Positions 20-30,763 of a DNA stretch of 30,763 nucleotides are shown piece after piece. The translations under genes were made by a program, and so were the position numbers. The notes beneath the pieces are model-generated. The model was not told the DNA's origin. It did no database searches and worked only from the letters and a program-made list of their open reading frames with translations. The stretch is taken from the IMG/VR virus record IMGVR_UViG_2718218434_000001; one strand, written 5' to 3'. The stretch is from a virus (lineage: Duplodnaviria > Heunggongvirae > Uroviricota > Caudoviricetes). Every line of letters begins with the position of its first letter. The stretch's first letter is position 1.

Positions 20-1315
20 TTAATTTTTTATTGCTTCGTTATGGGGCATGGTTGGGGCAAACTCGTTTAACTGTGTATTTAACAAAGCTACCTGTGCATT
101 ATTGTTTTCAGACATCCATTTTCCGTATACCTGAAATACCATTTGCGCATCTGCATGGCCCATCTGGTTTGCTATAAATGCCGGGTTAGCACCAGCTGTC
201 AGCGACCAGCAGGCATAAGTATGTCTCGACTGATATGATTTTCGATGGCGGAGTCCGGCACGTTTTATCGCTGCGTCCCACATCTGCCTTATTGAGTCAA
301 CGGTAAAATGGTCACCATAATTTTTTACTCTCGCTGACACTTCAGGTTGAAAAACAAAGGTGCATTTTTGTTTTTCTGTTCTGCCATACTCTCTGAGGTG
401 AACATCAATGATATGCTCTTTACTCAGTCTCGTTAATGTCATCTGACTCCGGAGAGCGTCGATTGCTGGCTTAATAAGATGAATGACCCGATTGGTTCCC
501 GCCTGTGTTTTTGGTACCGTGAAACGGTCTTTTGCTAAATTTCTCCTGATCATCATTGTTCCATTTTTCAGATCTATGTCCTCCCATCCAAGTGCACACA
601 GCTCACCAGGGCGAACGCCAGTATAAACAGAAACACACCATAAATTTTTTGCTTGCTGATTTCTGCACGCATCGATAAGACGGATAAATTCCTCCCGCGA
701 AAGAGGATCCGGAATGGTTCTTGATTCCTTTAATGGCGAGATCCCCTTAAACGGATTATCTGCCAGGTAACCGTTATCAACACCAAACTGGAACACGGCG
801 TTAAGATTTGTCATGTAATTATTTACAGTTACAGCCGATCTCCCTGGTTGTGTAACAATATAGTTACTTTTGGGGATCTGGTATCCAGTCAGTAGCTCTT
901 TACGAACCTCCAGTAATTTTTCTTTATTAATCGATGAGGCAAGATTTTTTTCACCGATTATGCTCAGGATATTTTTGATGACGGCACGGTATGTGTTGAG
1001 TGATGTTTTGGCGACTTCATTTTCTTTCAGTGCCAGAAATTTTTCAGCCAGTTCTTTTATGGTTAAATCTTGTCGGGCCTCACCAAATTTTTCCAGATTG
1101 CGTGAGGAGGGAAACTGTTTTGCATAGTCGAAAACACCAGTTTTTATTGCGTAACAAACAGAGGAGCGTAGTTCACCTGCAACGCGCCTGTTTTTTGCTG
1201 TGTCAGGAACCCCCAGATTTTCCCTGACTCTTACGCCTTTATAAACAAACCAGATACGTAATTTCCCTCCATGGTTTTCCACGCCTGTCGGATATTTCAT
1301 TTCAACTTCTCTCAT
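20..1315 (-). CDS. int: Tyrosine-type phage integrase (site-specific recombinase); likely true start at 1300 (MKYPTG...)
   Basis: ORF translation has the C-terminal tyrosine-recombinase box (SRHTYACWSLTAGANP...MGHADAQMVFQVYGKW) with catalytic Tyr context; sits at the prophage edge next to an excisionase-like gene. Family assignment from recalled motifs, no search run. Confidence 0.85.
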   Translation of the reverse strand: MREVEMKYPTGVENHGGKLRIWFVYKGVRVRENLGVPDTAKNRRVAGELRSSVCYAIKTGVFDYAKQFPSSRNLEKFGEARQDLTIKELAEKFLALKENEVAKTSLNTYRAVIKNILSIIGEKNLASSINKEKLLEVRKELLTGYQIPKSNYIVTQPGRSAVTVNNYMTNLNAVFQFGVDNGYLADNPFKGISPLKESRTIPDPLSREEFIRLIDACRNQQAKNLWCVSVYTGVRPGELCALGWEDIDLKNGTMMIRRNLAKDRFTVPKTQAGTNRVIHLIKPAIDALRSQMTLTRLSKEHIIDVHLREYGRTEKQKCTFVFQPEVSARVKNYGDHFTVDSIRQMWDAAIKRAGLRHRKSYQSRHTYACWSLTAGANPAFIANQMGHADAQMVFQVYGKWMSENNNAQVALLNTQLNEFAPTMPHNEAIKN

Positions 1316-8817: not shown

Positions 8818-10605
8818 TTAAGTCTGAGCCTCACTCTCTTGGCCATAAGTGGCTTGCCAGTATCTCGCCGTAGGGTTCATTAGAATGTGCAATACAAGCC
8901 ACCATGCAAAAATGCAGGGAGGTTGATTGTAGTAACCGGCAGGCACATATCCGTGAGCTAGTTGATTTCGTAAATCACCATAGATTTTATCTACCAGTAA
9001 GGCCTGAAGATTGCCAATTATGTCTACGCCGAAAGCTTCAATAATCAGTGGATTATCTAGTAATCCCTTGAGTCCATTTCGCTCTTGCGAACCGTCCCCG
9101 TGAAGCTGCGATGGTTCCTCACCTTTAATTTTAGCCACATATCTCAGACTATTTTCGATCTGGGGAATCAACACGTGGCATGCCGTCATAAAATCTCCAT
9201 TGAAACCGCAAACCATACCCTTGATGAAAAACTCTTCATGCCCAAACGGGATGAAGGGATGATTGATGAACATATCGCGAAAAAACGCCTCCGAGATTGG
9301 ATATTTCATTGTGATCTCATCTGTAGCAGGAATAATTTGCCCAGCTACTGCCAACTCATGGTCGATACGCATTCTCGTCATCATTATGGGCCAAATAACT
9401 GCCCCATTTGCATCATCAATCCCCAATCCTGCGGGTATGCGAGCAAGTGTCATTCCCTCATGATCAATATGTGTTGATCCAAACATCCAAGCTATGCTGT
9501 TGGCCTTTTGTTCTATTGCTTGAGCCTTAAGTCTCTCAATGCTGGTTGGCCGACAGACCAGCATCGCAAGTCTGAAAACCATATCAAACAAATCTCTTCC
9601 GACTACCCGACTCTTGGCTTGATGGACAATCTCACTAATATCTTGAGGGGGAGACTGAAGGATAGACATCTGGTGACGGGATTCGATTTGGTAATCACGC
9701 ATTTCTTCATACAGCGCAAGACGTTCTATTCGGGTTCCTGGAATATTAGCCAGTGCTTCAATAGCATTCTGCATGCAGGCTGCCGAAATCATACCGCCAT
9801 CTTGGAATTTTGATTCTTCCAGATGTGTATCGGCAAGAAGCCGCCAGAATTCAAACTGTGTATCTCTGTCACAGCACCTATTCGCAATCGGGATTGCGGT
9901 TTTACAGGCATCGACGGCAAATGAAAATAATTTTTGAGCCAGATAGTTTTTTGTCAGAAACAGGAGTTCCTGGGCAATAAAAGATGGCTCACTCACTTTA
10001 CAGTCGATATCGAGTTGCAGGAGTCGCAGCGGATAAGGTGAATCGCCTTGTTCTCTGGTACGTTCATACTCTGCTAGTAGATGTGCCGAAAGCTGATCAA
10101 ATTCATCCCTGAAATCAGTATTCTTTCGAAAAAAACAACACAGCCTAAGCGCACGCTCTAGGCGTTCTAAAGCACTAACCCACGTCCCTTGCGATGTCAT
10201 AATAGCTATACTGGACGCATAATAAGCACGGACTGCCAGCAAAGGAAAACGGATTCCACCAATTTTACGAACCCAAAGTGTATCAGCAATACGAGCTTGA
10301 AGTTCGGGTAGCTCTATCGTCGGGCAAAATTGAGAAAGTACCTCCAGCGACAACCCGTTAATGTCATCCGGAATTGCAGATCTACCTTGGCTGCTTTGAA
10401 AGCACGGACCAAATGGTACCTGTGGATTTTCGGGACGAAAGTGAAAACCGCAAATATGGGTTAGCAGTCTTATCTCCGCTCTTCCATCACCTAGGCTAGA
10501 AAGATACTTTGTGATATCAAAGCAGGTAACTGGCAGCTTACTCTGGATTAAGGGGGATAAATCAATAGTGTTAAGTTCGTCGAGGCTGATATTAATATCG
10601 TCCAT
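8818..10605 (-). CDS. Orphan 595-aa protein, unknown function; candidate single-gene anti-phage/abortive-infection effector with C-terminal HEPN-like R-x4-H motif
   Basis: Long ORF with strong RBS (AAGGTGA 4 nt before ATG); on the strand opposite to flanking early genes; flanked by noncoding spacers; C-terminal DLRNQLAHG fits the Rx4-6H HEPN signature; no other motif recognised. Confidence 0.8.
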   Translation of the reverse strand: MDDINISLDELNTIDLSPLIQSKLPVTCFDITKYLSSLGDGRAEIRLLTHICGFHFRPENPQVPFGPCFQSSQGRSAIPDDINGLSLEVLSQFCPTIELPELQARIADTLWVRKIGGIRFPLLAVRAYYASSIAIMTSQGTWVSALERLERALRLCCFFRKNTDFRDEFDQLSAHLLAEYERTREQGDSPYPLRLLQLDIDCKVSEPSFIAQELLFLTKNYLAQKLFSFAVDACKTAIPIANRCCDRDTQFEFWRLLADTHLEESKFQDGGMISAACMQNAIEALANIPGTRIERLALYEEMRDYQIESRHQMSILQSPPQDISEIVHQAKSRVVGRDLFDMVFRLAMLVCRPTSIERLKAQAIEQKANSIAWMFGSTHIDHEGMTLARIPAGLGIDDANGAVIWPIMMTRMRIDHELAVAGQIIPATDEITMKYPISEAFFRDMFINHPFIPFGHEEFFIKGMVCGFNGDFMTACHVLIPQIENSLRYVAKIKGEEPSQLHGDGSQERNGLKGLLDNPLIIEAFGVDIIGNLQALLVDKIYGDLRNQLAHGYVPAGYYNQPPCIFAWWLVLHILMNPTARYWQATYGQESEAQT

Positions 10606-16644: not shown

Positions 16645-16892
16645 AAGATATGATGTGATGGCATTTTATAAAGTTATTTTTTGAAGTGTAAGATTATACG
16701 ATATTTTTAGCTACGCTAGAATAATTGCTGGCGTTTTTCTTTTTGAATAGATGTTCGGGCCTTACGCTAATGTAACTTCTTTCCTTCTTCGAACCAAACC
16801 GTGTACACCATCCGTTATCTGCGGAGGTGATCTTACCCAGCAATAGTGGACACGCGGCTAAGTGAGTAAACTCTCAGTCAGAGGTGACTCAC

Positions 16893-17192
16893 ATGACAAA
16901 AACAGTATCAACCAGTAAAAAACCCCGTAAACAGCATTCGCCTGAATTTCGCAGTGAAGCCCTGAAGCTTGCTGAACGCATCGGTGTTACTGCCGCAGCC
17001 CGTGAACTCAGCCTGTATGAATCACAGCTCTACAACTGGCGCAGTAAACAGCAAAATCAGCAGACGTCTTCTGAACGTGAACTGGAGATGTCTACCGAGA
17101 TTGCACGTCTCAAACGCCAGCTGGCAGAACGGGATGAAGAGCTGGCTATCCTCCAAAAGGCCGCGACATACTTCGCGAAGCGCCTGAAATGA
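16893..17192 (+). CDS. insE: IS3 transposase OrfA (InsE)
   Basis: HTH-containing orfA translation [29 protein letters not shown]... within IS3. Confidence 0.85.
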
Positions 17193-18055
17193 AGTATGTC
17201 TTTATTGAAAAACATCAGGCTGAGTTCAGCATCAAAGCAATGTGCCGCGTGCTCCGGGTGGCCCGCAGCGGCTGGTATACGTGGTGTCAGCGGCGGACAA
17301 GGATAAGCACGCGTCAGCAGTTCCGCCAACACTGCGACAGCGTTGTCCTCGCGGCTTTTACCCGGTCAAAACAGCGTTACGGTGCCCCACGCCTGACGGA
17401 TGAACTGCGTGCTCAGGGTTACCCCTTTAACGTAAAAACCGTGGCGGCAAGCCTGCGCCGTCAGGGACTGAGGGCAAAGGCCTCCCGGAAGTTCAGCCCG
17501 GTCAGCTACCGCGCACACGGCCTGCCTGTGTCAGAAAATCTGTTGGAGCAGGATTTTTACGCCAGTGGCCCGAACCAGAAGTGGGCAGGAGACATCACGT
17601 ACTTACGTACAGATGAAGGCTGGCTGTATCTGGCAGTGGTCATTGACCTGTGGTCACGTGCCGTTATTGGCTGGTCAATGTCGCCACGCATGACGGCGCA
17701 ACTGGCCTGCGATGCCCTGCAGATGGCGCTGTGGCGGCGTAAGAGGCCCCGGAACGTTATCGTTCACACGGACCGTGGAGGCCAGTACTGTTCAGCAGAT
17801 TATCAGGCGCAACTGAAGCGGCATAATCTGCGTGGAAGTATGAGCGCAAAAGGTTGCTGCTACGATAATGCCTGCGTGGAAAGCTTCTTTCATTCGCTGA
17901 AAGTGGAATGTATCCATGGAGAACACTTTATCAGCCGGGAAATAATGCGGGCAACGGTGTTTAATTATATCGAATGTGATTACAATCGGTGGCGGCGGCA
18001 CAGTTGGTGTGGCGGCCTCAGTCCGGAACAATTTGAAAACAAGAACCTCGCTTAG
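17189..18055 (+). CDS. insF: IS3 transposase OrfB (InsF), DDE integrase-type catalytic domain
   Basis: orfB in -1 frame overlapping orfA end, typical IS3-family organisation. Confidence 0.85.
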
Positions 18056-18095
18056 GCCTGTGTCCATATTACGTGGGTAGGATCAAGGTGAGGCT

Positions 18096-22140: not shown

Positions 22141-22479
22141 TCACCATAACTGCTAACCATTCTGACCATTTCACAAGTGACAGAGTCAATATCGTATTCT
22201 GTCACTGTCAGGCTAATACAGCAATGCAATTCAACTACAGCAATGCCTCGTATTTAGGTGAATTTACAATATCGTCCAGTTCGGATGCCGGCTGCATTTC
22301 TGAAGATAAGGCATTTCGGTTCTCGTATTTTCCCCTCATGCTCGTCAGTCCTGCGCGTAGTAAGAAACAGGACACTCACACTAATTTGTGTGGGCATGCT
22401 GTGATGTCCTTCTGAATTATCCCCATGCCATTATGTAAAGCTCTGTTACAGATGCTCGTCACGGTTGTCAGGCTGTCGG

Positions 22480-22570
22480 GTCCTCCCAGTGGGGGGCCCT
22501 GCCACGGGGCGGGAGCGTCGCGGAAAAAGGCTAGTTTTTGAAATTTTATTCGTCATCACCACTACTGTAA
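22480..22570. other. Candidate cos site (cosN-like ACGGGGCGGGAGCGTCGCGG followed by AT-rich cosB-like region) upstream of Nu1
   Basis: Sequence around 22504-22523 resembles recalled lambda cosN (ACGGGGCGGCGACCTCGCGG) and downstream TGAAATTTTAT; lies about 170 bp upstream of the Nu1-like gene. Confidence 0.5.
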
Positions 22571-22692
22571 TTGATTGATATTACAGTTGTTTTATTTTTA
22601 TGGTGTCGATTCTGATTGTTTTTTGTTCATCACTAACACCGTTTGCCTAAAGTTGTTCGCAAGATGCATGTTTAAAACATTCTGGAGCGGGT

Positions 22693-23187
22693 ATGGATCG
22701 AGAGTTAAAAAATCTGACGCTGAATATCAGTCAACTGGCGGCATTGTCAGGTGTACATCGCCAGACTGCTGCGGCAAGGCTGCAAAATCTACCCGTTGCA
22801 GGGGGGCATGAAAGCAACCTCAAGCTTTATCGGGTGGTTGATATTGTGTCGGCATTTCTGGCATTACCACCGCCGGTTGCAGAAGGCGAAATGGACGCGC
22901 ATGAGCGCAAAGCCTGGTATCAGTCTGAACGTGAGCGTCTTAAGTTCGAACAGGAAACGGCACAACTCATTCCGGCCAGTGATGTCAGACGGGAGTTTGC
23001 CATCTGGGCAAAAGCGGTCGTGCAGGTGCTGGAGACATTACCGGATATTCTTGAACGTGACTGCGGTCTGCAGCCTGCCGCTGTGAGCCGTGTTCAGTCC
23101 ATTATTGATGATCTGCGCGATCAGATAGCCCTGCGGGTGACTGAAGCAGGTGCGGATGATGAGGAGGAATTACAGCAGGAGGAGTAA
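22693..23187 (+). CDS. nohA: Terminase small subunit (Nu1/NohA-like) with N-terminal HTH
   Basis: Translation MDRELKNLTLNISQLAALSGVHRQTAAARLQ...; GGAG RBS; acidic C-terminus. Confidence 0.7.
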   Translation: MDRELKNLTLNISQLAALSGVHRQTAAARLQNLPVAGGHESNLKLYRVVDIVSAFLALPPPVAEGEMDAHERKAWYQSERERLKFEQETAQLIPASDVRREFAIWAKAVVQVLETLPDILERDCGLQPAAVSRVQSIIDDLRDQIALRVTEAGADDEEELQQEE

Positions 23188-23618
23188 TGCTGAATCAGGA
23201 AACCGCAAAGGCAGCACGAACCGATTCAGGTTATATCCTTCGCGCACCGAGACGAATGCGGGTTGCTGATGCCGTTGCTCAGTATATGCGGGTGCGTAAC
23301 CGCTGGTTCAGCGTGATGGCGGGGCCGTCTGTGCGCGTGAATGAATGGTTCAGCGCGTATGCGATGGCGGGTATGGCTTACAGCCGTGTGTCGACCTTCT
23401 CCGAGGATTATCTCCGCGTAACTGACAACAAGGGGAAAACGCACGATGTGCTGACCGGAAGTGATGACGGTCGCCACAGCAACACGTCTCTGGCGTGGGG
23501 GGCTGGCGTGCAGTTTAACCCGACCGAATCCGTGGCCATTGACCTTGCTTATGAAGGTTCCGGCAGTGGTGACTGGCGCACTGACGGTTTCATCGTGGGT
23601 GTCGGTTATAAATTCTGA
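23187..23618 (+). pseudogene. Lom/Ail-family outer-membrane protein remnant (C-terminal ~110 aa fused to unrelated N-terminal ~25 aa); deletion junction
   Basis: C-terminus ...SVAIDLAYEGSGSGDWRTDGFIVGVGYKF matches recalled lambda Lom end; no signal peptide; start overlaps Nu1 stop (TAATG). Confidence 0.6.
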
Positions 23619-23644
23619 TTAGCCAGGTAACACAGTGTTATGAC

Positions 23645-23671
23645 AGCCCGCCGGTTCAGGCGGGCTTTTTT
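23645..23671 (+). terminator. Rho-independent terminator (AGCCCGCC-GGTTCA-GGCGGGCT + T6)
   Basis: Perfect 8-bp stem plus T-run immediately upstream of the tail-fibre RBS. Confidence 0.7.
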
Positions 23672-23682
23672 GTGGAGTGGAT

Positions 23683-26031
23683 ATGGCAGCAGTAAAAATC
23701 TCAGGTGTGCTGAAAGATGGTGCGGGAAAACCAATACAGAACTGCACTATTCAACTGAAGGCAAAGCGTAACAGCACCACGGTACTGGTGAACACGGTGG
23801 CCTCTGAAAATCCGGATGAAGCCGGGCGTTACAGCATGGATGTTGAGCATGGCCAGTACAGCGTCACCCTGCTGGTTGAAGGTTTTCCGCCTTCACATGC
23901 CGGAACCATTACCGTCTATGAAGGTTCCAGACCAGGTACGCTGAATGATTTTCTCGGTGCCATGACGGAAGATGATGTCATGCCGGAGGCATTGCGTCGT
24001 TTTGAGGCAATGGTGGAAGAAGCGGCACGCAACGCCGAAGCCGCCTCTCAGAGCGCAGCGGCGGCAAAGAAATCCGAAACTGCAGCGGCATCATCGAAGA
24101 ACGCGGCGAAAACCTCAGAAACGAATGCAGCTAACAGCGCACAGGCGGCAGCGTCCTCGCAGACTGCATCGGCAAACTCCGCGACAGCAGCCAAAAAATC
24201 AGAAACCAACGCGAAAAACAGCGAGACAGCCGCAAAGACGAGCGAAACCAACGCAAAGTCCAGCCAGACGGCAGCGAAAACCAGCGAAACGAATGCCAAA
24301 GCCAGTGAAACTGCGGCGAAAAATAGCCAGAATGCAGCAGCCGAAAGCGAGAGCGCGGCAGCCGGTTCTGCGACTGCAGCAGCTGGATCAGCAACTGCTG
24401 CGGCTAACAGCCAGAAAGCAGCGAAGACGAGCGAAACTAACGCAAAGTCCAGCCAGACGGCAGCGAAGACCAGCGAAACAAATGCCAAAGCCAGCGAAAC
24501 TGCGGCGAAAAGCAGTCAGGATGCAGCAGCCGAAAGCGAGAGTGCTGCAGCTGGTTCTGCAAGTGCGGCGGCTGCTTCTGCCACTGCATCAGCAAACAGT
24601 CAAAAAGCTGCAAAAACCAGTGAAACCAATGCAAAGACAAGCGAGACTGCAGCGGCGAACTCGGCGCAAGCATCGGCAGCAAGCCAGACAGCAGCTAAAG
24701 CAAGTGAGGATGCAGCCAGAGAGTATGCAAGCCAGGCAGCAGAGCCGTATAAATATGTCTTACAGCCACTGCCTGATGTGTGGATACCGTTTAACGATTC
24801 ACTGGATATGCTTGCTGGCTTTTCGCCTGGTTATAAGCAAATAACCGTAGGTGATGATGTTATTAAAATGCCATCCGATAAGGTTGTTAGCTTCAAACGC
24901 GCATCAGGTGCAACATACATTAATAAATCAGGTGTATTAACCGTTGCTGAAGTTGACGAACCGCGATTTGAACGAGAAGGTTTGCTGATTGAAGGACAGA
25001 GAACAAACTATTTCAGAAATTCAAATACACCAGAAGCATGGAATAACACGGGTAGTGTGTCTGTTGAGTCGTTCGACAGTGATAAGGGGTTTAACTATGG
25101 AAGGATAACTGTTATTAATGAAAATCCGACAGCACAAGGATATCAGGCAATTGCTGTAAACACGAATGATGCTTACACCTGCCCGGCAGGTTCTTATACG
25201 ACGATATCGTGTCTGACGAAAAGTGATAATTCCCGGTGTCGTGCAAGGTTCGGAAAAATGTCTGATAATGGTGCGTTTGTTTTTCATTCAGATGCAGTTC
25301 TGGATCCTGTTACGGGAAATGTTGTTCATGGAAATAATGTGACGGTGACGGCAGAAAGAGTCGGTGAATGGTGGTTGTTTACCGCCACTCTTTTTGCAGA
25401 TGCGGAAATGATAATCAGCTCAAGATTTGAAATCCTGGCGATGCCTGGAATCAGTATTATCCCCAATGGCTCTACGTTAGATATTGCGATGCCTCAGGCG
25501 GAGATTGGGTCGTACAGGACGTCATTTATCATTACTGAAGGGGCTCCTGGCACTCGCTCCAGCGACATGGTGACAATACCTGTAAGAAACAATATTCACC
25601 GATTACCATTCAGTGCTCTTGTTGAAGTTAATAAAAACTGGGATATCCCTCCCAGCAAATCACCATTAATCTTTAATGTTAAAGATTATCAGGAAAATGG
25701 TCTGTTCACGCATGGATTCCGTGGTAATAATTTCTCTGATGCCGGTTCTCCTTTTATTTCTATGGGAGGGTGTAATAAATATGTGGCAACAACCCAGAGG
25801 AAAATCATTTCAGGCTTCCGTTGTGGCGCTGATGGAGATGTTCAGGCCGTATGTAATGGTGAATTATCTGTTGCGGCAAAAACAACATGGACTTCAATTG
25901 TTCCACGGGCAGTATTGCGAATTGGAGGGCAGGGCACTAATGGGGAGTATCATCTTTTTGGTCATATCCGTAATCTGCGTATCTGGCATAAAGAATTAAC
26001 TGATGCGCAAATGGGGGAGAGTATTAAATGA
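23683..26031 (+). CDS. Side tail fibre protein (Stf): conserved lambdoid N-terminus, Ala/Ser/Thr-rich repeat shaft, divergent C-terminal domain
   Basis: N-terminus MAAVKISGVLKDGAGKPIQNCTIQLKAKRNSTT... matches recalled Stf N-terminal domain; central AAKTSETNAK repeats; GGAG RBS. Confidence 0.85.
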   Translation: MAAVKISGVLKDGAGKPIQNCTIQLKAKRNSTTVLVNTVASENPDEAGRYSMDVEHGQYSVTLLVEGFPPSHAGTITVYEGSRPGTLNDFLGAMTEDDVMPEALRRFEAMVEEAARNAEAASQSAAAAKKSETAAASSKNAAKTSETNAANSAQAAASSQTASANSATAAKKSETNAKNSETAAKTSETNAKSSQTAAKTSETNAKASETAAKNSQNAAAESESAAAGSATAAAGSATAAANSQKAAKTSETNAKSSQTAAKTSETNAKASETAAKSSQDAAAESESAAAGSASAAAASATASANSQKAAKTSETNAKTSETAAANSAQASAASQTAAKASEDAAREYASQAAEPYKYVLQPLPDVWIPFNDSLDMLAGFSPGYKQITVGDDVIKMPSDKVVSFKRASGATYINKSGVLTVAEVDEPRFEREGLLIEGQRTNYFRNSNTPEAWNNTGSVSVESFDSDKGFNYGRITVINENPTAQGYQAIAVNTNDAYTCPAGSYTTISCLTKSDNSRCRARFGKMSDNGAFVFHSDAVLDPVTGNVVHGNNVTVTAERVGEWWLFTATLFADAEMIISSRFEILAMPGISIIPNGSTLDIAMPQAEIGSYRTSFIITEGAPGTRSSDMVTIPVRNNIHRLPFSALVEVNKNWDIPPSKSPLIFNVKDYQENGLFTHGFRGNNFSDAGSPFISMGGCNKYVATTQRKIISGFRCGADGDVQAVCNGELSVAAKTTWTSIVPRAVLRIGGQGTNGEYHLFGHIRNLRIWHKELTDAQMGESIK
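24231..24606 (+). repeat. Near-perfect tandem duplication (2 x ~186 bp) inside stf shaft region
   Basis: Nucleotide units about 24231-24417 and 24418-24606 differ at only a few positions; encodes a duplicated 62-aa Ala/Ser/Thr-rich segment. Confidence 0.7.
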
Positions 26032-29479: not shown

Positions 29480-30763
29480 ATGGATTTCCAGTTATATTCG
29501 CTCGGCGCAGCGTTAGTGTTTCATGAAATATTTTTTCCTGAATCATCAACGGCAATGGCGTTAATTTTGGCAATGGGAACCTACGGTGCAGGTTATGTGG
29601 CGCGTATTGTCGGAGCATTTATTTTCGGCAAAATGGGCGACAGAATAGGGCGTAAAAAAGTGCTCTTTATTACCATCACCATGATGGGGATCTGTACCAC
29701 CTTAATTGGTGTGTTACCGACCTATGCACAGATTGGTGTTTTTGCCCCCATCTTGCTGGTGACGCTGCGTATTATTCAGGGGTTGGATGCAGGTGCGGAA
29801 ATTTCCGGTGCCGGTACGATGCTGGCGGAATATGCACCAAAAGGTAAGCGCGGAATTATCTCCTCATTTGTAGCTATGGGAACTAACTGCGGAACCTTGA
29901 GCGCAACGGCAATCTGGGCCTTTATGTTCTTCATTCTCAGTAAAGAGGAACTGCTGGCGTGGGGATGGCGTATACCGTTCCTGGCGAGCGTTGTCGTGAT
30001 GGTCTTTGCTATCTGGTTACGTATGAATCTGAAAGAAAGCCCGGTCTTTGAGAAGGTTAATGACAGCAACCAACCCACAGCAAAACCTGCACCTGCTGGT
30101 AGCATGTTCCAGAGCAAATCCTTCTGGCTGGCAACAGGGCTGCGTTTTGGTCAGGCGGGTAACTCCGGGTTAATTCAGACTTTCCTTGCAGGCTATTTAG
30201 TGCAGACGTTATTGTTTAACAAAGCAATTCCAACAGATGCATTGATGATTAGTTCGATTCTCGGCTTTATGACCATTCCGTTCCTTGGTTGGTTATCCGA
30301 TAAAATTGGTCGCCGGATCCCGTATATTATTATGAATACCTCCGCGATTGTGCTGGCATGGCCAATGCTTTCTATCATTGTAGATAAAAGCTATGCCCCG
30401 AGCACCATTATGGTTGCACTGATTGTGATTCATAACTGTGCGGTGCTGGGATTATTTGCTCTGGAAAACATTACCATGGCAGAAATGTTCGGCTGTAAAA
30501 ACCGCTTTACCCGGATGGCTATTTCTAAAGAAATTGGTGGTCTTATCGCTTCCGGTTTTGGTCCTATCCTGGCGGGTATTTTCTGCACCATGACGGAATC
30601 CTGGTATCCGATCGCCATTATGATCATGGCATATTCAGTGATTGGTTTAATCTCTGCGCTGAAAATGCCAGAGGTGAAAGACCGTGATTTAAGTGCGCTG
30701 GAAGACGCTGCGGAAGATCAACCGCGTGTTGTAAGAGCTGCGCAACCTTCCAGAAGTCTGTAA
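29480..30763 (+). CDS. ydfJ: MFS transporter (metabolite:H+ symporter family, YdfJ-like), apparently lacking the N-terminal part of TM1
   Basis: 12-TM MFS-like sequence with GDRIGRK motif; ORF begins inside what should be TM1, consistent with prophage integration in the 5' end of the gene. Confidence 0.8.
   Translation: MDFQLYSLGAALVFHEIFFPESSTAMALILAMGTYGAGYVARIVGAFIFGKMGDRIGRKKVLFITITMMGICTTLIGVLPTYAQIGVFAPILLVTLRIIQGLDAGAEISGAGTMLAEYAPKGKRGIISSFVAMGTNCGTLSATAIWAFMFFILSKEELLAWGWRIPFLASVVVMVFAIWLRMNLKESPVFEKVNDSNQPTAKPAPAGSMFQSKSFWLATGLRFGQAGNSGLIQTFLAGYLVQTLLFNKAIPTDALMISSILGFMTIPFLGWLSDKIGRRIPYIIMNTSAIVLAWPMLSIIVDKSYAPSTIMVALIVIHNCAVLGLFALENITMAEMFGCKNRFTRMAISKEIGGLIASGFGPILAGIFCTMTESWYPIAIMIMAYSVIGLISALKMPEVKDRDLSALEDAAEDQPRVVRAAQPSRSL

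Follow-up and report, generated by a model that had tools for sequence, protein, structure and literature searches.

How does a prophage come to keep its cohesive-end site (cos) and an intact small terminase gene, while the genes that build its head and tail are gone? The locus described here raises this question. It lies in a stretch of 30,763 nucleotides (IMG/VR record IMGVR_UViG_2718218434_000001), referred to as the window, whose content is a lambdoid prophage at the Qin/ydfJ site of an Escherichia coli-type chromosome, as recognized from annotated near-identical DNA. An initial annotation had described a cos-like site and an intact-looking Nu1/NohA gene running directly into a Lom-like open reading frame (ORF), and had attributed the lack of all head and tail genes to a large internal deletion. 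Intact relatives support such a deletion: very probably, one illegitimate, microhomology-mediated event of ~18.1 kb disabled this Qin-site prophage. The kind of event is well known, and the new element is this exact junction; a deletion of one Qin-site prophage documented to the nucleotide is in itself routine. Its left end coincides with a position in the large terminase subunit gene (terL) at which other deletions also begin.

The junction was placed by base-by-base comparison with EC931, PSJ-07 and PD23. Window positions 22400-23295 are 100% identical to EC931, which runs on into terL. From position 23292, the window corresponds to the middle of the EC931 lom gene at 99.5% identity. Aligned against terL 5' ends and lom genes, the two sides meet at a GTGC tetranucleotide common to both (Table 1). 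PSJ-07 contains an apparently complete prophage at the same rspB/int…ydfJ' site, 99.75-99.9% identical to window 1-23295 and one insertion sequence (IS) apart. In PSJ-07, the two breakpoints are separated by 18,085 bp, an interval comprising terL (700 amino acids), a small head-tail gene, the portal gene, a fusion of ClpP protease and major capsid protein, a pair of head-completion genes, tail genes as far as tape measure, L, K, I and J, and codons 1-92 of lom. The particle-forming genes are accordingly lacking in the window, with 16 genes lost and 2 truncated relative to PSJ-07. PD23 also carries the full module at the same site, where the corresponding interval measures 22,030 bp and includes an IS cluster. 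The absence of the terL body, portal, capsid and tail shaft is as first annotated, but the loss does not extend to all tail genes, as the side tail-fibre gene stf, fibre and assembly ORFs and pinQ are kept. In the window, terL nt ~108 is joined to lom nt ~278 across the common GTGC, and the morphogenesis block was very probably lost in this one event. The element alone would no longer cut cos, package DNA or build particles.

The missing genes are also not to be sought further out. With the phage integrase at the left edge and the truncated ydfJ inside the window, the element starts at about the left window edge and ends within the window, and therefore holds no structural genes beyond it. The layout is collinear with four annotated genomes (ES2, PSJ-07, EC0026B and PD23), with int at one end and the ydfJ 5' end at the other. 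Around the junction, the window is collinear with PSJ-07 as far as 23295 and with PD23 from 23292 on; its right arm shares 99.56% identity with PD23 but, over lom and the start of stf, only 90.6% with PSJ-07. Judged from these alignments, the window combines known alleles in an ordinary mosaic that has undergone one large deletion. This event looks recent and private, because each arm is 99.6-100% identical to intact relatives and the junction did not turn up anywhere else that was searched. The junction is contiguous in none of the complete E. coli genomes, and the exact 143-amino-acid protein that it creates is absent from ~15 billion sequences, with no gene of that product on record. A homology search likewise returned no full-length, high-identity match to this protein.

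The cos site first annotated is present and of lambda type. Its 12-mer GGGCGGGAGCGT is identical to the lambda sequence GGGCGGCGACCT in the left half (bases 1-6) and differs at bp 7, 8, 9 and 11, and both flanks agree with lambda (ACG on the left, CGCGG on the right). In lambda-like cosN sequences, the right half is naturally variable and tolerant of mutation, and the CG pairs at the nicks are conserved (Feiss 2015, PMC4669245). The window follows this pattern, with strong lambda identity especially at bp 1-6 and CG kept at both nick positions (PMC4669245). The record of phage cdtI starts at the equivalent of window 22507 with the identical 12-mer and that of Tritos ends at 22506, record termini being the choice of the depositor (cdtI is filed as circular). 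The 8-mer CGGGTCCT lies 22 nt upstream of the cut in the window and 23 nt upstream in lambda; its designation as cosQ is tentative. The spacer downstream of cosN contains an 11-nt inverted repeat (22561-22571/22580-22590, 91% complementary) and short direct repeats, and no TerS sites were identified in it. As far as sequence can tell, the cos assignment is well supported.

The small terminase subunit gene (terS) is intact, in agreement with the initial annotation, but its label as Nu1 does not hold. Its DNA is 100% identical to the EC931 copy (WP_000373425.1), the same protein is encoded in the intact prophages PSJ-07 and PD23, and this exact protein occurs on at least 1000 contigs. The product matches PF07278 (DUF1441, 2.7e-41, residues 10-150) and phrog_141 'terminase small subunit' (7.2e-74, residues 1-164). 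Phage_Nu1 is not among its Pfam matches at E<=1, and lambda Nu1 is matched in BLASTP only with E=20. The gene is situated between cos and a gpA-type terL, and its stop codon overlaps the following ATG in the TAATG reported at first, found here at 23185-23189; this order is seen in the intact relatives. The arrangement of cos, small subunit and gpA-type large subunit with a stop/start overlap is also that of lambda, whereas the small subunit has no detectable similarity to gpNu1. On its family assignment, it is a DUF1441-family analogue in the position of Nu1, not a homologue detectable by sequence, and annotations of this gene as 'Nu1' should be corrected to DUF1441 TerS. The viable or inducible lambdoid phages mEp460, phi458, Ayreon and vB_EcoS-569R4 share 95-99.5% DNA identity with the window over terS and the terL 5' region. 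Phage cdtI has the same cosN 12-mer and a DUF1441 protein to which the window TerS is 42% identical. In contrast to the window, terL and the morphogenesis genes are complete in the mEp460 group and in cdtI.

As cosN, the cosB-equivalent spacer and an undamaged TerS are all kept, the remnant could in principle be cut and packaged by a helper whose terminase is of this type (mEp460/PSJ-07-like). Potential helpers, with terS-terL intact across the site, are found in 1,360 of the 5,426 complete genomes, about a quarter. Prophage Sp4 of O157 Sakai, which is without an intact terminase, was found in particles, and this was attributed to the Sp14 terminase acting on a near-identical cos (PMC2669165). 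Like the window, Sp4 is a lambdoid prophage without a working terminase or head genes in which cos is kept. The two differ in that Sp4 is disabled by an IS in nu1 and keeps most of its structural region, whereas the window remnant is without the whole head-tail block and is much shorter. The remnant measures ~29.6 kb, or ~64% of its ~46-kb parent. Lambda chromosomes below ~75-78% of wild-type length are packaged or stabilised poorly. Because ~64% falls below this lower limit, the remnant probably lacks the length needed for its monomer to be stably packaged from cos.

Some observations weigh against a single deletion that disabled the prophage. The two arms differ in their closest relative (PSJ-07 on the left, PD23 on the right) and no single sequenced genome is the exact parent; the junction has no support from any second assembly; and the packaging limit of lambda may hold only approximately for this phage. 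We ascribe the difference in arm affinity to ordinary mosaicism of the tail-fibre region. It would equally be produced by recombination between elements, in which cos-terS-terL' derived from one prophage and 'lom-stf-pin-ydfJ from another, or in which an incoming phage recombined with a resident remnant. Lambdoid mosaicism is well documented, and E. coli genomes contain a median of 3 and a maximum of 15 places matching the region. However, the arms stand in single-prophage order and orientation at ydfJ, where PSJ-07 and PD23 each hold both of them, the homology at the joint is only 4 bp, and allelic mosaicism of the stf region before the deletion explains the affinities equally well. Such an exchange appears quite improbable. 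A two-step origin is improbable as well: a terL-to-J deletion of the type seen in ETEC4067 and a fox isolate (…GCGGGTGC/GTGAGTATCC…, the slash marking the joint), followed by slippage between 6-bp GTGCGT repeats at that junction and in lom. The terL-to-J junction does exist in these two genomes, in the fox isolate with an extra J-to-lom deletion on top of the ETEC4067-type event. GTGCGT is common to the junction and lom nt ~273-278, and anchored successive events would account for the recurrent left end. Yet the 800-nt left flank of the window shows 0 differences from EC931, which is intact at the site, versus 12 from the terL-to-J copies, and the right arm matches PD23 with its complete module. 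Moreover, junctions with partners at terL nt 989 and nt 1709, upstream of J, are not derivable in this manner.

The uniqueness of the junction among everything searched would also be expected of an assembly artefact, in which two reads or contigs were wrongly joined at a short repeat. The 4 bp in common are nevertheless too short to deceive an assembler, both arms keep their native order, and six other such junctions at the same terL nucleotide occur in complete genomes and independent assemblies, so that an artefact has next to no probability. Finally, the remnant might be a selected, functional, helper-dependent satellite-like element that hijacks related capsids via cos and TerS. Both are undamaged in the window and in several independent remnants, and trans-packaging of defective lambdoid prophages is documented (PMC2669165). 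Phage-inducible chromosomal islands of the cos type are reported from E. coli; they carry cos as the window does, and depend on helper terminase and capsids (PMC6739421, PMC6092414). Unlike these islands, the window element has ~29.6 kb with lysis and fibre genes and no compact dedicated organisation. It is a collinear deletion derivative of a 46-kb prophage that retains the lysis cassette, stf/tfa and pin, and no satellite-specific features were seen, although Rpp-like genes were not looked for. The joint is private, TerS carries a frameshift in ES2 and a truncation in NCCP12480, an IS3 sits in the late operon, and the length is unfavourable for cos packaging; the chance of a selected satellite is very remote. 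We retain the single terL-lom deletion as the very probable origin of the remnant.

The left breakpoint of this deletion, …ATGCGGGTG(C), is shared, to within ±1 nt, by seven junctions, each with a right partner of its own, in diverged backgrounds (Table 1). In the reference sequences, TG precedes the partner site in six of the seven, and would do so in ES2 too if its lom had the Val (GTG) allele of the fox isolate. The pattern suggests a fixed, defined 3' end (…GGGTG-3') that was paired through 2-7 nt with variable downstream partners. Comparison of the 800-nt left flanks shows that every deleted copy is matched at least as closely by an intact neighbour as by the other deleted copies, and that the L131 flank has more than 110 differences from the rest across the 800 positions. 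Common ancestry of all junctions was rejected on these grounds. The flank comparison suggests at least four independent origins among the seven junctions, although the window and ES2, and likewise the fox isolate and L111, may yet be related pairs. With a query centred there, the best copy was truncated in 28 of 1,388 genomes, and both of the two sampled stop at the breakpoint nucleotide. By naive chance, six more matches would fall into one 2-nt interval of the 2.6-kb terS-terL region with a probability of ~1e-19; ascertainment was partly biased towards the breakpoint site. Control breaks at terL nt 999 and nt 358 are recurrent as well, but with one identical partner each; they look like single inherited events and resemble mobile-element ends. 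We interpret the recurrent left breakpoint as a hot spot of illegitimate recombination, and prophage decay at this module as not random, because the deletions have a starting nucleotide in common whose position is not predicted by the length of microhomology.

Two further observations concern breaks elsewhere in terL. Five loci (L002 5781-6032, L015, L021, L099 and L102) share an identical break at terL nt ~999 and the ~250 nt of unrelated AT-rich DNA that follow it; next comes a short piece of J, whose joint to lom lies near the lom nucleotide used in the window. A cluster of left breakpoints also lies at terL nt 1393-1399 (L007 24320-24326), where L009, L108 and L120 break within 6 nt and have three continuations; this may be a second hot spot.

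A possible explanation for the recurrence is that a defined DNA end is repeatedly made at codon 36/37 of gpA-type terL genes, by a site-specific nick, replication arrest or as the scar of mobile-element excision, and is then joined via 2-7 nt to variable downstream sites. We regard this explanation as tentative and rather unlikely. If true, a widespread class of E. coli prophages would be repeatedly turned into head-less, tail-less elements that keep cos and TerS.

Several more specific candidates were tried and rejected. A hairpin or cruciform at the breakpoint is not indicated, as fold z-scores of -0.45 to +1.67 for both strands of the intact site are no better than shuffles. A Chi sequence in the correct orientation lies 35 nt downstream of the hot spot. 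Resection by RecBCD limited by Chi fails as a general rule, with no Chi within 300 nt of terL nt 1521 or of PSJ-07 positions 25949, 31863, 38928 and 26882, and a role for Chi at this hot spot itself is neither supported nor excluded. For type I-E CRISPR (clustered regularly interspaced short palindromic repeats), a minus-strand ATG protospacer-adjacent motif stands exactly at the deleted edge. Self-targeting was rejected, since a repeat-spacer-repeat query of the 5,426 genomes, made for that register alone, gave repeat-level matches only (89%, in two pieces). A model based purely on microhomology length is contradicted by 293 common 8-mers and repeats of up to 12-13 nt between terS/terL and J/lom that remain unused. 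As many as 54% of the left positions have a 5-mer in common with lom, and a second GCGGGTG, in terS, is not used by the single nearby breakpoint seen (L006). In a comparison by eye only, no convincing match was found to terminase secondary sites, relaxase nic sites, dif/Xer, Pin/Hin or a G-quadruplex. A metagenome scan for non-intact continuations produced no matches, and viral scans with shorter anchors yielded only two unrelated 17-mer chance matches (L138 and L139).

The breakpoint coincides with the boundary between a TerS-specific, variable TerL N-terminus and the conserved TerL body. Window-type and cdtI-type TerL are 88% identical; at their N-termini (L007 22928-23040 versus L136 733-845), the first 20 residues are unalignable, residues 21-36 are only loosely similar, and near-identity of the two types starts at 'MRVP', codons 34-37. 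This pattern looks like a swappable TerS-specificity module that ends at the hot spot. As a natural hot spot that is easy to assay, the site lends itself to the study of illegitimate recombination in E. coli, and it bears on why remnants with cos and a small terminase gene are so common in enterobacterial genomes.

The ORF created by the deletion is a TerL'::'Lom hybrid. As initially described, its C-terminus is Lom-like and lacks a signal peptide: the Lom part is R93-F199, and the signal peptide MRKLYAAILSVAICLAVSGAPAWA, with which intact Lom starts, is replaced by the hydrophilic TerL stub MLNQETAKAARTDSGYILRAPRRMRVADAVAQYMRV. It is not a complete, signal-bearing lom gene, as it covers only positions 89-199 of the 199 of the Ail_Lom profile, the C-terminal half of the barrel. 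Intact TerL has GpA_ATPase at residues 41-304 and GpA_nuclease at 326-644, and the stub of 36 codons contains no catalytic domain. As the joint is in frame, the Shine-Dalgarno sequence of terL and its coupling to terS would drive synthesis of a 143-amino-acid cytoplasmic hybrid with late transcripts. Because it has no terminase domain, no signal peptide and half a barrel, TerL(1-36)::Lom(93-199) would be a non-functional by-product. Pipelines may call this ORF hypothetical or Ail/Lom, and a 'Lom' annotation should be corrected to the hybrid. The protein search also yielded many other Lom chimeras, whose N-terminal partners are lambda gpA, the portal, lysozyme and the TerL C-terminus. Chimeric ORFs with the same Lom C-terminal half (P0024, P0026, P0029, P0095, P0107 and P0108) have starts that include a fibre-like protein. 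Prophage deletions appear often to have their right-hand end in lom, a view that is biased by the query.

Table 1 Features of the window and junctions at the recurrent terL breakpoint. A slash marks the breakpoint; positions are those of the window unless stated otherwise.
Feature	Position	Strand	Remarks
Phage integrase int	20-1315	-	19 nt from left window edge
IS3 insertion	16828-18085	+	99.9% identical to annotated IS3 in EC931; AGG target duplication
CGGGTCCT motif	22477-22484	+	Position of lambda cosQ region; cosQ assignment tentative
cosN-like 12-nt cohesive-end sequence GGGCGGGAGCGT	22507-22518	+	8/12 bases as in lambda
AT-rich cosB-equivalent spacer, 174 nt	22519-22692	+	Between cosN and terS
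Small terminase subunit gene terS, intact, 164 amino acids	22693-23187	+	Pfam DUF1441, phrog_141
Fusion ORF, 143 amino acids	23187-23618	+	TerL 1-36 + Lom R93-F199 (residues 37-143)
terL stub, codons 1-36, gpA-type	23187-23295	+	100% identical to terL 5' end of EC931 and PSJ-07
Deletion junction, GTGC microhomology (4 bp)	23292-23295	+	terL …GCGGGTGC/CCATGG; lom …TTCCGTGC/GTAACC
lom 3' fragment, Lom residues 93-199	23296-23618	+	In frame with terL stub; Pfam Ail_Lom 1.1e-63
Intrinsic terminator	23645-23672	+	8-bp stem, 7 G-C pairs, T-run, after lom (terminator scan)
Side tail-fibre gene, retained	23683-26031	+	Pfam phage_tail_N 1.9e-66; start per PD23 annotation
ydfJ, 5'-truncated	29480-30763	+	Right chromosomal boundary, Qin attachment site; annotated without N-terminus in ES2, PSJ-07, EC0026B and PD23
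Recurrent breakpoint	23294-23295 = L007 23035-23036		Loci L001, L003, L005, L111, L131, L137, L140
Intact terL across breakpoint	Codon 36/37		…ATGCGGGTG/CCCATGG…
Junction, window	Right partner lom nt ~278		Common bases GTGC
Junction, ES2	Right partner lom nt ~350		Common bases GCGGGT(G)
Junction, 042/AR group	Right partner lom nt ~580		Common bases GGGTG
Junction, ETEC4067 and fox isolate	Right partner mid-J		Common bases TGC
Junction, IMG/VR contig L111	Right partner terL nt 989		Common bases TG
Junction, IMG/VR contig L131	Right partner terL nt 1709		Common bases TG
Junction, GCA_004793215 (P0016/L140, 18 contigs)	Right partner lom nt ~190		Common bases TG

The remainder of the element resembles other prophages of the Qin site. 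Qin is defined by integration at the 5' end of ydfJ, and prophages at this site range from 11 to 97 kb across strains (PMC6379469). Like the window element, Qin-site prophages have lost morphogenesis genes and cover a wide range of sizes (PMC6379469). From int onwards, the gene order in the window is xis, exonuclease, dicB, the immunity region, hokD, rem, ydfU, Q, the lysis genes essQ/rrrQ/rzpQ, cspI, ynfN and gnsB; to the right of the junction region, stf is followed by more fibre ORFs, pinQ, ydfK, ynfT and the truncated ydfJ. K-12 Qin and its strain variants occupy the same site with ydfJ truncated at its 5' end, and have dicB, hokD, rem, ydfU, essQ/rrrQ/rzpQ, cspI, ynfN, gnsB, pinQ, ydfK and ynfT in common with the window. 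Qin of K-12 carries a Nu1-type NohA and other deletions than those in the window. The window differs from it in a packaging module composed of DUF1441 TerS and gpA-type TerL, in an integrase, excisionase and early region that look intact, and in the joint of terL nt 108 to lom nt 278, which is specific to the window.

The IS3 element is situated in the Shine-Dalgarno region of the holin gene essQ, 10 nt upstream of its ATG (18096), and is not found in PSJ-07 or EC0026B. It constitutes a second lesion of the late operon and may weaken late expression. Within the tail-fibre gene, positions 24217-24654 consist of ~190-nt direct repeats of ~84% identity that encode Ala/Ser/Thr-rich 'AAKTSETNAK' units. 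Between the replication and hokD regions, a gene of 595 amino acids with a DUF4209 domain (8818-10605, minus strand) represents cargo that is also present in PSJ-07 and EC0026B.

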